A DNA stretch of 64,000 nt from an uncultured Bacteroidales bacterium. GTDB taxonomy: Bacteria; Bacteroidota; Bacteroidia; Bacteroidales; UBA10428. Position numbers and translations under genes: made by a program. The notes beneath the pieces are model-generated. The model did not search any database, was not told the origin of the DNA, and saw only the letters and a list, made by a program, of their open reading frames with translations. The DNA is taken from positions 9,749 to 73,748 of the forward strand of contig CAZFQS010000003.1 in NCBI GenBank assembly GCA_964521285.1. The letters run 5' to 3'. Position 1 is the stretch's first letter. Every line of letters begins with the position of its first letter. Shown here piece by piece: positions 9,008 to 15,297 of the stretch.

Positions 9008-9592
9008 ATGATTAGCTACACAAAAGATAAACTGGAAAAAATTGGCAATGCAATAATATATTTTACACAAAATATTCCGGATTTATCAAAAACAAAACTT
9101 ATTAAATTATTGTATTTATTGGAGGAATGCTTCATAAAGAAATATCAACTTCCCTTCCTGGATATTGAATTTGAAGTATGGCAAGCCGGGCCCGTTAACA
9201 GGGAAATATTTATTGAATTATCAGATGAACCTTTAATGTTAAAAGATTACATTATTAAAGAGCTTGATGAAGATGCAACATACATTAAACCCAAACAAGA
9301 GTTTTCAGATAATGAGTTTTCAGATAATGAGTTTGAAATGCTTGATTTTATAATCAAATCTTTCGGAAACAAAACTGCCGCTGAATTGGTCAACCTAATT
9401 CATAAAAAAAGTTCACCCTGGTATATCATTGCCGAAAGAACCGGATTACTAAGGGCTTTTAATGACGGTTTATTAAACTCATCTGATATTAAAATTGATT
9501 TAAGTGAGTTTTATTGCGATAGCAAAAAGACAAGTGAGCAATATAGAGAACAAAAAATGTTTAACCGGTTTGCTCAACAGTTCTCTATTTAA
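9008..9592 (+). CDS. Panacea-domain (DUF4065, SocA/PanA-like) antitoxin
   Basis: KLIKLLYLLEECFIKKYQLPFLDIEFEVWQAGPV matches the hallmark KLxKLLY..(F/W)xAWxxGPV segment of DUF4065. Confidence 0.7.
   Translation: MISYTKDKLEKIGNAIIYFTQNIPDLSKTKLIKLLYLLEECFIKKYQLPFLDIEFEVWQAGPVNREIFIELSDEPLMLKDYIIKELDEDATYIKPKQEFSDNEFSDNEFEMLDFIIKSFGNKTAAELVNLIHKKSSPWYIIAERTGLLRAFNDGLLNSSDIKIDLSEFYCDSKKTSEQYREQKMFNRFAQQFSI
9299..9334 (+). repeat. 15-bp in-frame tandem repeat (GAGTTTTCAGATAAT x2.4; EFSDN-EFSDN-EF) inside the PanA-like gene
   Basis: Direct reading of 9299-9334. Confidence 0.9.
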
Positions 9593-9771
9593 TGTATACA
9601 GCAGGTAACATTCTATATTTTACTCCATTCTACTTTCCTGATGGTGGTTCTGCAGCTAAAAACAAGTATTTTATTATACTTAAGATTGATAATGACACAG
9701 GAATAATAGCAAGTTTACCAACAACAAAAGATCATATTCCTGATTTTATTGAAAAAAACATGGCTGCATAA
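9592..9771 (+). CDS. unannotated 59-aa ORF, candidate truncated toxin partner of PanA (weak MazF/PemK-like N-terminal pattern)
   Basis: Own translation: MYTAGNILYFTPFYFPDGGSAAKNKYFIILKIDNDTGIIASLPTTKDHIPDFIEKNMAA. Its start overlaps the PanA stop (TAATG). Confidence 0.45.
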   Translation: MYTAGNILYFTPFYFPDGGSAAKNKYFIILKIDNDTGIIASLPTTKDHIPDFIEKNMAA

Positions 9772-11376: not shown

Positions 11377-12306
11377 TTAAAATACTAACCGTTGCTGGCC
11401 TGACTTTTGCTCAATATAATACAGGATTCTCCTGGAATAGAATTGATTTTTCAACCTTCTAATATCACCCAAGACTGTTTTTTCTAAAGGGAAAAAACTT
11501 ATCATAATACGGTTATAGTATTCAAATTGGCTGTTTTTATTCTTTGGATTGTCAATAATTCTTTTAAACAAGTCAACATACAGATCAGCTAATTCTTCTC
11601 GATATTTTGAGCTTCCACTTTTTTTGATACCATGAATAATGCTTGTGCTTACACCCAATAAAACATCACATAATTGAATTAAATTTGAACACCTATCTTT
11701 TTTATGATCTTTAGGTAGAAAGGTAATTTTGTTGCAATTGAATAGAATGGTTTTATCTTTTTCCAGTTTATAGAAAATATGCCGGGAAAAATAGAGATGG
11801 TTTTGCTGCTGACCTTCCTCATGAAATATGTTTTCGACAATAATCTTTCTCCCACCGAAAAATGTTTTTAAAGCATATAAAAGAGTGCTTCTAAAGAATC
11901 GATTATATTTACTATTGAATTCGTCGTCTGTATTGAATTCTTCTCTAATCAGATAAGAATCATTTAACCCAAGTATATAGGAATAAAATTTCCTTCTGCT
12001 TTTATTGGGATTAAGGATATACTCAAACCATCGTTTACAAATATTTTTTGTATCAGCGATTCTTATTTCGCACCAATGCACTATTTTATTGTTCTTTTCA
12101 TAATAATTGGAATTTTTGTTAAAGTTGCCTATAAATCTTTCGTATATAATGTCATCAAGCAAAGGATGGTCTATATCTTCGACAACTATCCCGATATAAT
12201 TCCATACATTGTTAGTGTAAGGACAGAGCTTCCCCTGAACTTCATCTGCATAGATATTGATACGAATTGGGTCCTGATGATACTCGTTCCCAAATAAATC
12301 CCTCAT
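11377..12306 (-). CDS. DUF3800-like protein
   Basis: 309 aa. N-terminal INIYADEV and distal ITFLPKDHKKDRCSNLIQLCDVLLGV resemble the DUF3800 DE...QxxD pattern. Assignment is by eye only. Confidence 0.5.
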   Translation of the reverse strand: MRDLFGNEYHQDPIRINIYADEVQGKLCPYTNNVWNYIGIVVEDIDHPLLDDIIYERFIGNFNKNSNYYEKNNKIVHWCEIRIADTKNICKRWFEYILNPNKSRRKFYSYILGLNDSYLIREEFNTDDEFNSKYNRFFRSTLLYALKTFFGGRKIIVENIFHEEGQQQNHLYFSRHIFYKLEKDKTILFNCNKITFLPKDHKKDRCSNLIQLCDVLLGVSTSIIHGIKKSGSSKYREELADLYVDLFKRIIDNPKNKNSQFEYYNRIMISFFPLEKTVLGDIRRLKNQFYSRRILYYIEQKSGQQRLVF

Positions 12307-12405: not shown

Positions 12406-15297
12406 TTATCTAATGTTATATTTATTTTTTCTTTGTTCGAATGCGACCCTTCCTCCATCCAAGATTTCACAAGCGTGTTCACACACGCCTTGAGATTTGA
12501 GTGTATCTTTACATTTTTCGTCTTTTGTTTTTGTATATTCAAGACTACCAGTAAGATAATTGAATTGTCTCCCATCTATATTTTCTCTATCAGTTCCATG
12601 CCTATTCGCAATAATTACCTGCTCAGAATCTGATCCAATTGCTAGATTTGCATTGTGACTTACCATAATAATCTGTCGTTCTTTTTTCTTTTTTTTCAAA
12701 AATGGAACAATATCATCGTAAATTGACCTGCTATCCAAATCGTCTTCCGGCTGATCAATCAACAACGGCCAAATATCTTCGGATTCTGCAAGTATTAACC
12801 TTAGTAGGAACAACGCTCGTTTCCCCGGTGTCATTGTTGGTTCAGAAAATCCACCAATTTTATCTCCTTCCATTTCGGCATTAAAGAGAATTTTTTCGTT
12901 CAGTGTTAAAACATCTCGAGCAACCTGTATTTTTTCATTCCCCTTAATTATTTTTTGCTCACCTGAATACAGAGCAGATAAAAAATCACCTGGGGTTTCT
13001 CTGATCTTACCGATAATCAATGTGCCACTATCAATGAAATTAGATTTTCCCTTGATGTATATTTTTTGCGTGACTTCCTCAAGGTTTTCATCAAACCCAT
13101 ATTCCATTCCAAATTTAATACCCTCAATAGCGCTCTGATCTGCGCTATCTATATTTGTTCCCAATTCTTTTATAAGAGTATTTCTTTTATCCATACAAGA
13201 TTTGATGACTTCCTCACATTTTTCTAACTTAACTTCCAAATTTTTCTTTTCGATCGCCGTCTCATTGATTTTTTTAATTTTTTCTTCATGCTGGTTTAAT
13301 CTTTGAACATGCACCTCCAGTTCAACATTTTTCTGATATTTCTCGATAAGATGTTTATTTTTCCCCTTAATTTCTGAGGTAGTTTTCTCCAAATCCGACT
13401 TCTCTTTTTCGATCATTCTTTTATAATATAGAATCTTCTTATTGACATCTTTCAGAATCCCATCCTCTTTTTCCTTCAAGAACATACTAATTGCATCTTG
13501 GAGACCCTTCGGTAAACTTGCCAACGCTGGAGAAAGAGTAATCTTTAATTCATTAAAAAAATGCTGTTCTTCAGAAACATTAGAAATTTGTGAGATTTCC
13601 ATATTTATTACATCTATTCTACCCGCATGTTTTAATAGATCAGCATTAATTTCTTGATACTGCTTTAATTCTTCATTGCTCAACTGATTTTTCTCTTTCA
13701 AATTTTTTATTTTTAATTCAATCTCTTCTTTCACTTTTTCAATGGCTTCCTTATTTCCCAGATTCTTAAGTTGCTCGTTAAGTAATTTGATAGATTCAGA
13801 AAAATCAAACCAATTATCAATTTGACCCGAGATTTGCTGATTATATAAACCTATATTTTTTTCTGCTTGTTCGTACTTAATTTTAAAATCAGGGAGAACT
13901 TTAAACAAAACGGGTTTGATTTTTTCTTTGATTTCATTTGAATTTTTACTTTCCTTAAATAAGTGATTCTGGGGGATGTAAACAATTTTCCCTGGGCTTT
14001 CATCATTTGATTTGCCATTACCCCACTCAATTGAATGTTCAATATTTATTTTCTTCCAGTGATAATCTTCTCCTTCTCCCGGACCTTCAACCAATTCTTC
14101 GGCCAGTTCTTCATCGACAGAATGTGCTACATAAGCAAGTAGCGCTGATTTGCCTGAAGACCGGCTCCCTATAATTGAACAAAAGTTTTTATTAAACTCG
14201 ATTTCTTCAGGAAAATCATTTGTATTGGTAAATCGAATCTTTGATATAATTTTGTATCCATCTTTTTGATCAGGCTCAACCGGGTTTATTTTAACACGTT
14301 CACCAGGTTCAGGCTCATAGATAATTTGCTTTAATCCTTTAAAAGTTGGGTCGGCTTTGATCCATGTATAATCATTAGTTTTTCCACTTGATGGATGAAA
14401 CAGATTTTCTTCAGTATGCGCATCTGAACCCCAAATGCACGGCTTATAATTCCTAAAACGATTAAAGATTTCATCTTTTGGTGTATCTTCTTTTTGGCCC
14501 AACAAGAATTGGATATCATTATCATCGTTAGAAAAGCACACATCAGATAAATTCAATAGATTCTGTCTTATGTTTCCAGCTCGGGACAAATCCTTTTGCT
14601 TGCCCTGCCAATTAAAAGCAGATAGACCACCCGCACCTTTGTTCGCAATGATTATCAAATATTTATCATCATTGATCCCGGATTTCTTCAAGATCTTTTT
14701 AAATTTCTCAATACCATCATCGAAAATAGAACTAGAGAAAGTAATTACTTTTAGTGCTTTATTGATTAGAGTGTTCTTCTTTTCATCATTAATAGAACAT
14801 AAATCTAAATTTGCATCATAATGTCCGTTATTTTCTTCAGCGTTCCCAATTCTTATTAAATCATCGGCTTTGCAGTTTAAATCAAAAGACTGGTATTTGA
14901 TCGTTAATTTTTCCAGAAATGAATTTCGAATTGTTGAAGGTAGGATATCAGGAGAAAAAACCACATGAATATTTACAGATTCATTATCACTTGTAAAATT
15001 TTCCAATCGCAATTCGACTACAGGAAAGAGATAAAGCAATATGTCATTGCTTAGTTTTATGCAAGGTCTTATCTTTCTCGAGTCTTTTTCACATTCTCCC
15101 AATAGTCTTTCATAACCATCAACGGAAAAATAGTCGTTGATCCCTACCACCTCTACGTCATGTGCAACAGCTTTTTCTTTAAGCTTTTCAATATATGTAT
15201 CCCAGCCATCAAAGTCATTTTCATAAGAAACAGGCGTATGCACATGCAAATCCCATTTCCGCCATTCAGAACCTTTTTTAAATTTTGTATTATTCAT
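12406..15297 (-). CDS. PHP-domain phosphoesterase fused to an ABC/SMC-type coiled-coil ATPase (Ppl-like architecture)
   Basis: WDLHVHTP..GINDY..GSDAH (PHP metal ligands). Walker A GSRSSGKS. A ~350-aa Lys/Glu-rich coiled-coil region. Walker B/D-loop LLIDQPEDDLD, followed by IIMVSHNANL. The start overlaps the MTase stop (ATGA). Confidence 0.75.
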   Translation of the reverse strand: MNNTKFKKGSEWRKWDLHVHTPVSYENDFDGWDTYIEKLKEKAVAHDVEVVGINDYFSVDGYERLLGECEKDSRKIRPCIKLSNDILLYLFPVVELRLENFTSDNESVNIHVVFSPDILPSTIRNSFLEKLTIKYQSFDLNCKADDLIRIGNAEENNGHYDANLDLCSINDEKKNTLINKALKVITFSSSIFDDGIEKFKKILKKSGINDDKYLIIIANKGAGGLSAFNWQGKQKDLSRAGNIRQNLLNLSDVCFSNDDNDIQFLLGQKEDTPKDEIFNRFRNYKPCIWGSDAHTEENLFHPSSGKTNDYTWIKADPTFKGLKQIIYEPEPGERVKINPVEPDQKDGYKIISKIRFTNTNDFPEEIEFNKNFCSIIGSRSSGKSALLAYVAHSVDEELAEELVEGPGEGEDYHWKKINIEHSIEWGNGKSNDESPGKIVYIPQNHLFKESKNSNEIKEKIKPVLFKVLPDFKIKYEQAEKNIGLYNQQISGQIDNWFDFSESIKLLNEQLKNLGNKEAIEKVKEEIELKIKNLKEKNQLSNEELKQYQEINADLLKHAGRIDVINMEISQISNVSEEQHFFNELKITLSPALASLPKGLQDAISMFLKEKEDGILKDVNKKILYYKRMIEKEKSDLEKTTSEIKGKNKHLIEKYQKNVELEVHVQRLNQHEEKIKKINETAIEKKNLEVKLEKCEEVIKSCMDKRNTLIKELGTNIDSADQSAIEGIKFGMEYGFDENLEEVTQKIYIKGKSNFIDSGTLIIGKIRETPGDFLSALYSGEQKIIKGNEKIQVARDVLTLNEKILFNAEMEGDKIGGFSEPTMTPGKRALFLLRLILAESEDIWPLLIDQPEDDLDSRSIYDDIVPFLKKKKKERQIIMVSHNANLAIGSDSEQVIIANRHGTDRENIDGRQFNYLTGSLEYTKTKDEKCKDTLKSQGVCEHACEILDGGRVAFEQRKNKYNIR

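Follow-up and report, generated by a model that had tools for sequence, protein, structure and literature searches.

The window analysed here, a 64,000-nucleotide stretch of contig CAZFQS010000003.1 from an uncultured Bacteroidales bacterium, contains a four-gene operon that ends with a gene of the TrlF family, whose product joins a PHP-type, predicted nuclease domain to an SMC-like ATP-binding cassette (ABC) ATPase. Our preferred reading, which we regard as fairly probable, is that TrlF would be an autonomous DNA-end nuclease cassette similar to the protein Ppl, and that such cassettes would have been captured again and again as the last gene of restriction-modification (R-M) operons. Judged by its homology with Ppl, it is most likely a self-contained effector directed against mobile elements. 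The gene adds a further member to a named family that is sister to a known defence system, and does not represent a new kind of system.

An earlier note on this DNA had described the open reading frame (ORF) at 12406-15297 as a PHP phosphoesterase fused to a Rad50/SMC-like ATPase. The frame proved to be real: translation of the minus strand of the window, a strand that the note had not named, runs from an ATG to a stop codon over 963 amino acids (aa), and the plus-strand translation of the same interval is riddled with stops. The motifs listed in the note were all found, DLHVHT (residues 16-21), GINDY (52-56) and GSDAH (290-294) in the PHP part, the Walker A sequence GSRSSGKS (377-384), and TPGKRALF (823-830), LLIDQPEDDLD (845-855) and MVSHNANL (878-885) in the C-terminal lobe (C-lobe) of the ATPase. 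Searches with the protein yielded more than 4,532 homologues at E<=1e-5, and the homologues collected at E<=1e-3 were 6,581 representatives of 50%-identity clusters. Conservation was counted in an alignment of 75 family members, which reached down to 26% identity and included one bona fide Ppl. The catalytic residues are kept throughout the family, the PHP ligands in 69-75 and the ATPase motifs in 73-75 of the 75 sequences. Because of this conservation and of the large number of homologues, neither the ORF nor its motifs can be attributed to chance.

The NCBIfam model NF045780 ('TrlF family AAA-like ATPase') matched the protein with 470.2 bits (cutoff 350, E=2.3e-140) over its full length, residues 8-961 being aligned to positions 1-944 of the 944 model positions. 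The earlier note had also pointed to a resemblance to Ppl. This was correct as regards true homology and common architecture; the further possibility that the gene is Ppl itself was rejected, since the NCBIfam Ppl model NF042955 gave only 93.1 bits in two partial stretches against a cutoff of 1000, whereas the TrlF cutoff was clearly exceeded. With the Spaf_1101 model of NCBIfam 89 bits were obtained (cutoff 475). The only PADLOC model that TrlF matched was Ppl (PDLC02208, E=3.4e-22, 76.4 bits), a partial match with its best stretch confined to the C-lobe. By tblastn TrlF matched ppl genes annotated by PGAP, and the best matches, as with the Ppl hidden Markov model (HMM), fell in the C-lobe and tail region. 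When a profile of the window's family was compared with a PGAP-annotated Ppl by hhalign, the two were aligned with a probability of 99.4% (E=6e-22) across GSDAH, the linker between the two domains (WIKADPTFEGLKQ versus WLKMSSPDFDGLRH) and Walker A. This alignment indicates that TrlF and Ppl are sister families with one architecture.

The two families share the PHP domain with all of its ligand columns, the conserved linker, and an ATPase in which the Walker A, signature, Walker B and H-loop motifs agree. Like the relatives of TrlF, Ppl is often plasmid-borne and solitary. The PHP domain of Ppl is shorter, with GSDAH at about residue 205 as against 292 in the window TrlF, and it has the canonical motif II histidine where TrlF has a tyrosine. 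Furthermore, Ppl is a stand-alone single gene, whereas the window TrlF belongs to an operon and overlaps the stop codon of a DNA methyltransferase (MTase) gene. Gao et al. in 2020 reportedly presented Ppl as a single-gene anti-phage system. It was still uncharacterised in 2024; according to a 2026 review, Ppl of E. coli is a single-stranded DNA 3'-5' exonuclease that is inhibited by nucleoside triphosphates (NTPs) bound to both of its domains and is triggered by DNA ends with a free 3'-OH (PMC12904381); this activity and the anti-phage activity are known for the E. coli protein alone.

The Pfam PHP model PF02811 had no match in the TrlF protein at E<=0.01, and the homologue P0077 has a precomputed match to it. 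In spite of this negative result the PHP domain claimed by the earlier note is real by fold. Residues 1-345, modelled alone with AlphaFold2 (AF2), gave a predicted local distance difference test score (pLDDT) of 84 and a predicted template modelling score (pTM) of 0.87, and the top five PDB matches of this model in Foldseek were all PHP-type enzymes with a probability of 1.0. The matches included a PHP phosphoesterase (3o0f), EndoQ (7k30), RNase AM (7ug9), PolC (3f2c) and the PHP domain of Pol III α; their TM-scores were modest (0.29-0.55). The predicted ligands are D16, H18, H20, D55, E95, H111, D292 and H294. Among the counted columns, E95 and D292 are present in all 75 sequences, H20, D55 and H294 in 73, H111 in 71 and H18 in 69. 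The role of the nuclease would be filled by this fused PHP domain.

The linker that follows forms, together with the preceding W312-I313-K314, the block WIKADPTFKGLKQIIYEPEPGERV, which hhalign aligned with WLKMSSPDFDGLRH of Ppl and in which W312, K314, G321, Q324, E328 and R334 are invariant or nearly so. In the AF2 model of the whole protein (pLDDT 78) an α/β N-terminal domain is followed by an ABC N-lobe, two long helical arms and an ABC C-lobe. The Foldseek neighbours in the PDB, with probabilities of about 1.0, were SMC heads with coiled coils, JetC, Rad50, MukB, RecN, LmuB, RecF and AriA. The split-ATPase layout read from the motifs thus corresponds to an ABC head of the SMC/Rad50/JetC/RecN type that is cut by a helical insertion. 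It was the fold comparison alone that matched known structures, as PDB chains gave no match to TrlF in sequence or profile searches; in Pfam, SMC_N was matched with 25.8 bits, below the gathering score of 40, and AAA_21 was likewise sub-threshold. In the N-lobe, the glycine and lysine (K383) of Walker A and Q443 of the Q-loop are kept in 75/75 sequences. The C-lobe carries the signature-like TPGKRALF, the Walker B/D-loop LLIDQPEDDLD, the H-loop SHNAN and a conserved H941/C943 tail; G825 of the signature, D848 of Walker B and D855 are found in 75/75, E851, three residues after Walker B, and H881 of the H-loop in 73/75 sequences.

A Lys/Glu-rich, heptad-like stretch is present between the lobes as the earlier note stated, but its length is about 265 aa and not about 350. 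DSSP assignment on the AF2 model divides it into two arms of about 118 and 122 residues (453-570 and 597-718), with pLDDT mostly between 80 and 95, and a non-helical apex (571-596). The apex (SNVSEEQHFFNELKITLSPALASLPK) does not contain any cysteine and hence no CxxC zinc hook; F581, P590, L595 and P596 are its conserved residues.

TrlF resembles SbcCD/Mre11-Rad50 in combining a predicted nuclease with an ABC ATPase of the SMC type in which a long helical arm interrupts the head, and Rad50 structures (7zr1, 9q9h, 5dac) were among its Foldseek matches. This analogous architecture could place TrlF among the housekeeping enzymes of DNA repair, as a one-chain equivalent of SbcCD/Mre11-Rad50 that processes hairpins and double-strand breaks. 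We consider such a role extremely improbable. The family is patchily distributed across the domains of life and bears traces of horizontal transfer, it is abundant on conjugative plasmids, its neighbours are R-M, abortive infection (Abi), Gabija-like, HEPN, SIR2 and toxin-antitoxin genes, and its nearest characterised relative is an anti-phage protein. SbcCD/Mre11-Rad50 consists of two chains and uses a calcineurin-like nuclease, whereas TrlF is one chain with a PHP domain and has far shorter arms than Rad50 (about 120 residues each way). A gene for a calcineurin-like nuclease of the Mre11/SbcD type was not found in the operon or its flanks. Since TrlF has neither the zinc hook nor such a partner, the term 'single-chain SbcCD analogue', proposed earlier, is appropriate as a mechanistic analogy only, for the combination of a nuclease with an SMC-like head.

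Parallels also exist among defence proteins. In OLD-family proteins, GajA of Gabija and AriA of PARIS, where an ABC ATPase is joined to a Toprim nuclease, and in JetC of Wadjet and LmuB of Lamassu, SMC-like or ABC heads sense DNA and control a nuclease, and JetC, LmuB and AriA structures were among the fold matches of TrlF. The domain order of TrlF is reversed relative to these proteins, the nuclease being N-terminal, and the nuclease is of the PHP and not of the Toprim or Cap4 type. Counterparts of the partner subunits JetABD, LmuA or AriB are not encoded near TrlF.

Table 1. Features of the TrlF gene and of the co-oriented genes around it (coordinates of the window)
Feature	Coordinates	Strand	Basis
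TrlF-family gene, 963 aa; PHP domain (predicted nuclease) and SMC-like ABC ATPase	12406..15297	minus	ORF, NF045780, homologues
PHP-fold domain (predicted phosphoesterase/nuclease), residues ~12-315	14353..15264	minus	AF2 model, Foldseek, ligand conservation
Conserved linker between PHP and ATPase, residues 316-350	14248..14352	minus	near-invariant columns, Ppl alignment
ATPase N-lobe, residues 351-452; Walker A 377-384, Q-loop Q443	13942..14247	minus	conservation, SMC-head fold
Helical insertion, residues 453-718	13144..13941	minus	DSSP on AF2 model, fold matches
ATPase C-lobe and tail, residues 719-963	12406..13143	minus	conservation, Ppl HMM/tblastn
Eco57I/TaqI_C-type N6-adenine DNA MTase, 1140 aa	15294..18716	minus	Pfam Eco57I 135 bits, TaqI_C 62 bits
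AlbA_2 (Schlafen-like) + HATPase_c_4 protein, 440 aa	18846..20168	minus	Pfam; TrlG architecture
Phospholipase D-like (PLD, HKD) nuclease + SNF2 helicase protein, 1069 aa	20158..23367	minus	Pfam PLDc_2, SNF2-rel_dom, Helicase_C; PADLOC 'HKD+Snf2' 145 bits
Unannotated ORF, 309 aa, 99 nucleotides downstream of TrlF; system membership uncertain	11377..12306	minus	

The genes of the operon are all co-oriented, in the order PLD-SNF2, AlbA_2/HATPase_c_4, MTase and TrlF. The AlbA_2 gene overlaps the PLD-SNF2 gene by 11 nucleotides (nt), and the start codon of TrlF overlaps the TGA of the MTase gene as ATGA, just as described in the earlier note. Over its full length the MTase matched the PADLOC model REase_MTase_IIG (1309 bits), and its sequence matches in the PDB were limited to the MTase and target recognition domain part (residues 721-1086). 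Residues 1-540 had no Pfam or PDB sequence match and no evident nuclease motif; PADLOC labels the whole protein 'Type IIG REase-MTase'. Because a nuclease motif is not evident in the N-terminus of the MTase, the PLD-SNF2 protein is likely to be the cleavage and motor subunit that works with it.

The overlap had led the earlier note to suggest that TrlF is regulated by, or partnered with, the MTase. Taken further, TrlF could serve the adjacent MTase as its restriction nuclease or as an indispensable subunit, the two forming a methylation-gated R-M pair. Gene neighbourhoods were compared from both sides, in 80 genome loci from many phyla and in Pfam-annotated contigs for TrlF, and in four contigs together with a tblastn search of plasmids for the MTase. 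Besides the ATGA overlap and the absence of a detectable nuclease domain from the MTase N-terminus, the pairing is favoured by a Bacteroidia metagenome-assembled genome (MAG; L004, TrlF 80% identical) in which the same four-gene order is kept, and by loci where MTases stand alone beside TrlF (C5 in L062 and L076, D12 in L050). These observations are outweighed by others. A DNA MTase lies within four genes of TrlF in only 27/81 loci, and no MTase adjoins the closest relatives, those with 73-74% identity, behind which HEPN_AbiV, SIR2 or other genes are found. Plasmid copies are solitary and located in defence islands, one of them flanked by a Gabija-like pair and by an Abi gene, and a solitary restriction nuclease would be self-toxic. 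A relative with 63% identity is located between type III mod and res, another with 54% identity between hsdS and hsdR, and one with 56% identity outside any R-M operon; the type I and type III host operons already have complete HsdR or Res subunits.

On the side of the MTase, PLD-SNF2 already provides nuclease and motor. In L093, L095, L096 and L007 its gene immediately precedes that of an MTase relative, and in L093 and L096 (71% and 54% identity) the two genes form a bare pair with TrlF absent. L095 contains PLD-SNF2, AlbA_2 and the MTase, then, with a 4-nt overlap, RhuM in the slot of TrlF, which is absent. The bare pairs and the RhuM locus show that the conserved core is a two-gene PLD-SNF2/MTase system, and the AlbA_2 insert of L095 shows that the AlbA_2 gene is optional and independent of TrlF. 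Taking these results together, a role of TrlF as the nuclease or subunit of the MTase is very unlikely. The position behind the MTase is a variable cargo slot and TrlF a movable add-on, not a dedicated partner of the MTase. What stands of the suggested partnership is a broader enrichment of TrlF at the tails of R-M operons.

RhuM genes were seen in the post-MTase slot or beside TrlF in type I operons (L095 11447-12484, L085 12885-13274, L090 7780-7995) and seem to be a further cargo that recurs at the tails of R-M operons.

The R-M components recurring around TrlF are HsdR, HsdM, HsdS, type III Mod and Res, and MTases of the Eco57I, Dam-like D12 and C5 types. When it was checked whether homologues elsewhere follow MTase genes, the answer was mixed: many are solitary or free of MTases, and an R-M gene occupies position -1 in 21 of 70 loci (30%), in 19 of them co-oriented with TrlF. 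The frequency of R-M genes was 14% at -2, 19% at -3, 7% at +1 and 2.2% at seven or more genes away (near versus far positions, odds ratio 7.9, p=3e-8). Nine of the R-M/TrlF junctions overlap. In the 37 loci without R-M genes the flanks contained 85 Pfam families, no family recurring beyond two loci. On the TrlF tree the R-M linkage is dispersed and not tied to a clade: the nearest relative was also R-M-linked for only 8 of 27 R-M-linked genes, compared with 9.9 ± 2.8 expected from shuffling, with the caveat that several of the loci counted as having none are short contigs. Time and again, TrlF has thus been captured by R-M operons of unrelated types, in which it stands last and in the same orientation. 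In the window itself, the genes for PLD-SNF2, the AlbA_2 protein and the MTase have GC contents at third codon positions of 0.393, 0.413 and 0.374, respectively, and that of TrlF drops to 0.288 (host genes 0.297 ± 0.044), a step inside the operon which suggests a mosaic origin, with separate acquisition of the R-M core and of TrlF.

Effectors residing in R-M operons are known from PrrC and RloC, anticodon nucleases embedded in type I R-M operons. Like them, TrlF is a putative stand-alone effector co-expressed within or at the end of R-M operons. By this precedent TrlF might act as a second-line guard, silenced by the R-M complex and unleashed by an anti-restriction factor of a phage, and its occurrence among the subunit genes of type I and type III R-M operons, its repeated, independent capture by unrelated R-M types and the potential self-toxicity of the TRL locus (see below) at high temperature would fit such a role. 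We nevertheless think it distinctly unlikely, as the many solitary members have no R-M partner to silence them, and a single protein would need to recognise R-M complexes whose architectures are unrelated. PrrC and RloC are proteins unrelated to TrlF, and in contrast to them TrlF occurs with R-M systems of types I, III and IIG-like, with lone MTases, or often entirely solitary.

Under the preferred reading of TrlF as an autonomous, Ppl-like end nuclease, the protein would consist of a metal-dependent nuclease of the PHP fold tethered by the conserved linker to an SMC/Rad50-like ABC ATPase made of two half-heads. The ATPase heads, controlled by ATP, would dimerise on DNA, probably at DNA ends, and their dimerisation would gate the PHP exonuclease, by which invading DNA would be degraded. 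In the window, TrlF occupies the cargo slot at the 3' end of the PLD-SNF2 and Eco57I-type MTase operon and is co-translated with the MTase. Placement behind R-M genes would secure co-expression and, plausibly, a supply of restriction-generated DNA ends in unmethylated invaders, self DNA being spared because methylated DNA is not cut; alternatively, TrlF may simply share the expression signals of the R-M genes. Nuclease activity, specificity for DNA ends, control by NTPs, a role in defence and synergy with restriction are thus all properties that we infer for TrlF. The independent, repeated placement behind R-M genes suggests that TrlF exploits the ends made by restriction. In its strongest form, which we put forward only tentatively, TrlF would be an end-activated 'restriction finisher' that is switched on by restriction ends and turns a cut that could be repaired into the invader's irreversible destruction. 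Equally tentative is the idea that R-M operons, whatever their architecture, would have recruited TrlF to their 3' ends repeatedly and independently because restriction supplies free ends.

The name TrlF derives from the Temperature Restriction Locus (TRL) of Photorhabdus laumondii (Hapeshi et al. 2020, PMC7554251), an operon with the order trlR-trlF-trlG in which trlR encodes a small regulator, trlF is a large gene annotated as 'histidinol phosphatase', and trlG, misannotated as recG, encodes an AlbA_2 + HATPase_c_4 protein (PMC7554251). Mutations in trlG or deletion of the operon allowed growth of Photorhabdus at 36 °C, a phenotype known for this TRL only, and phage is nowhere mentioned in the study (PMC7554251). 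In the window, too, a PHP + AAA-like ATPase TrlF and a TrlG-type gene are found in the same operon. TrlF could therefore form a two-component TRL module with the AlbA_2/HATPase_c_4 protein, the latter being a sensor, a regulator or a toxic effector and the MTase and PLD-SNF2 bystanders. In addition to the Photorhabdus genetics, this module is favoured by a P. syringae plasmid on which the TrlF gene overlaps one of the TrlG type; the 440-aa protein of the window aligns colinearly with the product of the latter (25% identity over 364 aa, E=2e-22), and AlbA_2 genes are present near TrlF in four genome loci (L004, L015, L032, L053) as well as in the window. However, more than 90% of TrlF loci have no AlbA_2 neighbour, and L095, with AlbA_2 between PLD-SNF2 and the MTase and without TrlF, indicates that AlbA_2 travels with the R-M core. 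A trlR-like small regulator gene was not seen at the window operon, where the TrlG-like gene, unlike the adjacent trlF-trlG of Photorhabdus, is parted from TrlF by the MTase and apparently belongs to the R-M core; the window TrlF is, moreover, only 23% identical to the TrlG-linked plasmid TrlF. On balance such a two-component module appears unlikely in the window. As TrlF is homologous to Ppl and TrlG is Schlafen-like, the growth arrest of Photorhabdus at 36 °C may have been autoimmunity of a misfiring defence module and not a thermoregulatory adaptation.

The P. syringae plasmid locus (PP1, L089 3697-7502), in which TrlF overlaps the TrlG-type gene, annotated as 'RNA-binding domain', by 19 nt, is peculiar in that the PHP ligand columns 55, 56, 111 and 294 are filled by N, K, L and K in its TrlF, with an alignment that is insecure at 23% identity. 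TrlF proteins of this type may represent a PHP-inactive, TrlG-dependent subfamily.

Several observations weigh against TrlF being an end nuclease that profits from restriction. Adjacency to R-M genes could reflect crowding in defence islands and insertion hot-spots instead of functional synergy. Identity to Ppl is low, the hhalign alignment comprising about 110 columns only, to which tblastn adds the C-lobe. In 67/75 members a tyrosine replaces the histidine that canonical PHP domains have in motif II, so the metal site of TrlF may differ from the canonical one. The full-length model had a pTM of 0.48, which makes the geometry of head and arms only tentative. In the only genetic study, that of Photorhabdus, temperature-restriction mutations were recovered in trlG and none in trlF (PMC7554251). 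The searchable literature shows no demonstrated nuclease, ATPase or anti-phage activity for any TrlF member, and a literature search found no paper tying TrlF/TrlG or TRL to phage defence.

The family is nevertheless very large, with the cluster representatives counted above and more than 1,000 plasmid records, many of them from clinical Enterobacteriaceae, and it has a curated name while its function is experimentally unexplored. The PHP + SMC-like fold, the homology with Ppl and the capture at R-M tails provide a concrete, testable mechanism for it, and suggest a general principle of end-processing nucleases riding on R-M systems. We regard as mildly new the predicted structure of TrlF as PHP + SMC-like, the link between TRL and Ppl-type defence, and the bias towards R-M tails across R-M types. 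For the window itself, the main gain is a correct and more precise annotation of the gene.

Other known systems were considered for the operon and rejected. The Hma system (helicase-methylase-ATPase), whose HmaA matches the SNF2 protein, was rejected as TrlF matches no PADLOC model other than Ppl. Partial matches to DrmD, DrmMI and PglX, which might have indicated DISARM or BREX, scored far under their cutoffs, and both DrmA/B and PglZ/BrxC are missing. Scans for promoters (53 versus 53.3 in shuffled sequences, with a sigma-70 model, the host probably being a member of the Bacteroidota with non-sigma-70 promoters) and for terminators (11 versus 9.9) were no better than shuffles and thus uninformative.

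TrlF homologues are found in Bacteria, the candidate phyla radiation and archaea. Of 1,086 plasmid records with TrlF, 810 are conjugative. The ATPase half (12406-14262) is unusually conserved across the domains of life and the PHP domain far more variable (L003, P0071), and over the whole protein a homologue from an archaeal MAG is 70% identical and one from Nitrosopumilus 56%. These values and the conserved ATPase half point to recent inter-domain horizontal transfer under strong constraint. A TrlF-like gene annotated as hypothetical, with 35% identity over 60% of the query, is present in the Microcystis phage Mwe-JY31 (PP438423.1, 16108-18786); other phage matches cover the C-lobe only.

The 309-aa ORF behind TrlF had no Pfam, PADLOC or NCBIfam match and was seen only on two metagenomic contigs, L001/L002, whose TrlF gene is identical. 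Among relatives without R-M linkage, the closest (73-74% identity) have HEPN_AbiV genes directly behind TrlF (L090 11530-12309, L091 13152-13883, L092 3459-4190). The ORF has no significant similarity to these genes, and it was dropped as a candidate for a conserved TrlF partner. Upstream of the operon lies a FabD gene, so that the island is bounded by housekeeping genes. Downstream of TrlF, three ORFs without significant family matches are followed by a gene for a 194-aa protein with a SocA/Panacea antitoxin domain (Pfam, 66.8 bits). Behind it comes an overlapping 59-aa ORF without matches, and the two (9008-9771, plus strand) may constitute a toxin-antitoxin pair of the Panacea type on the margin of the island.

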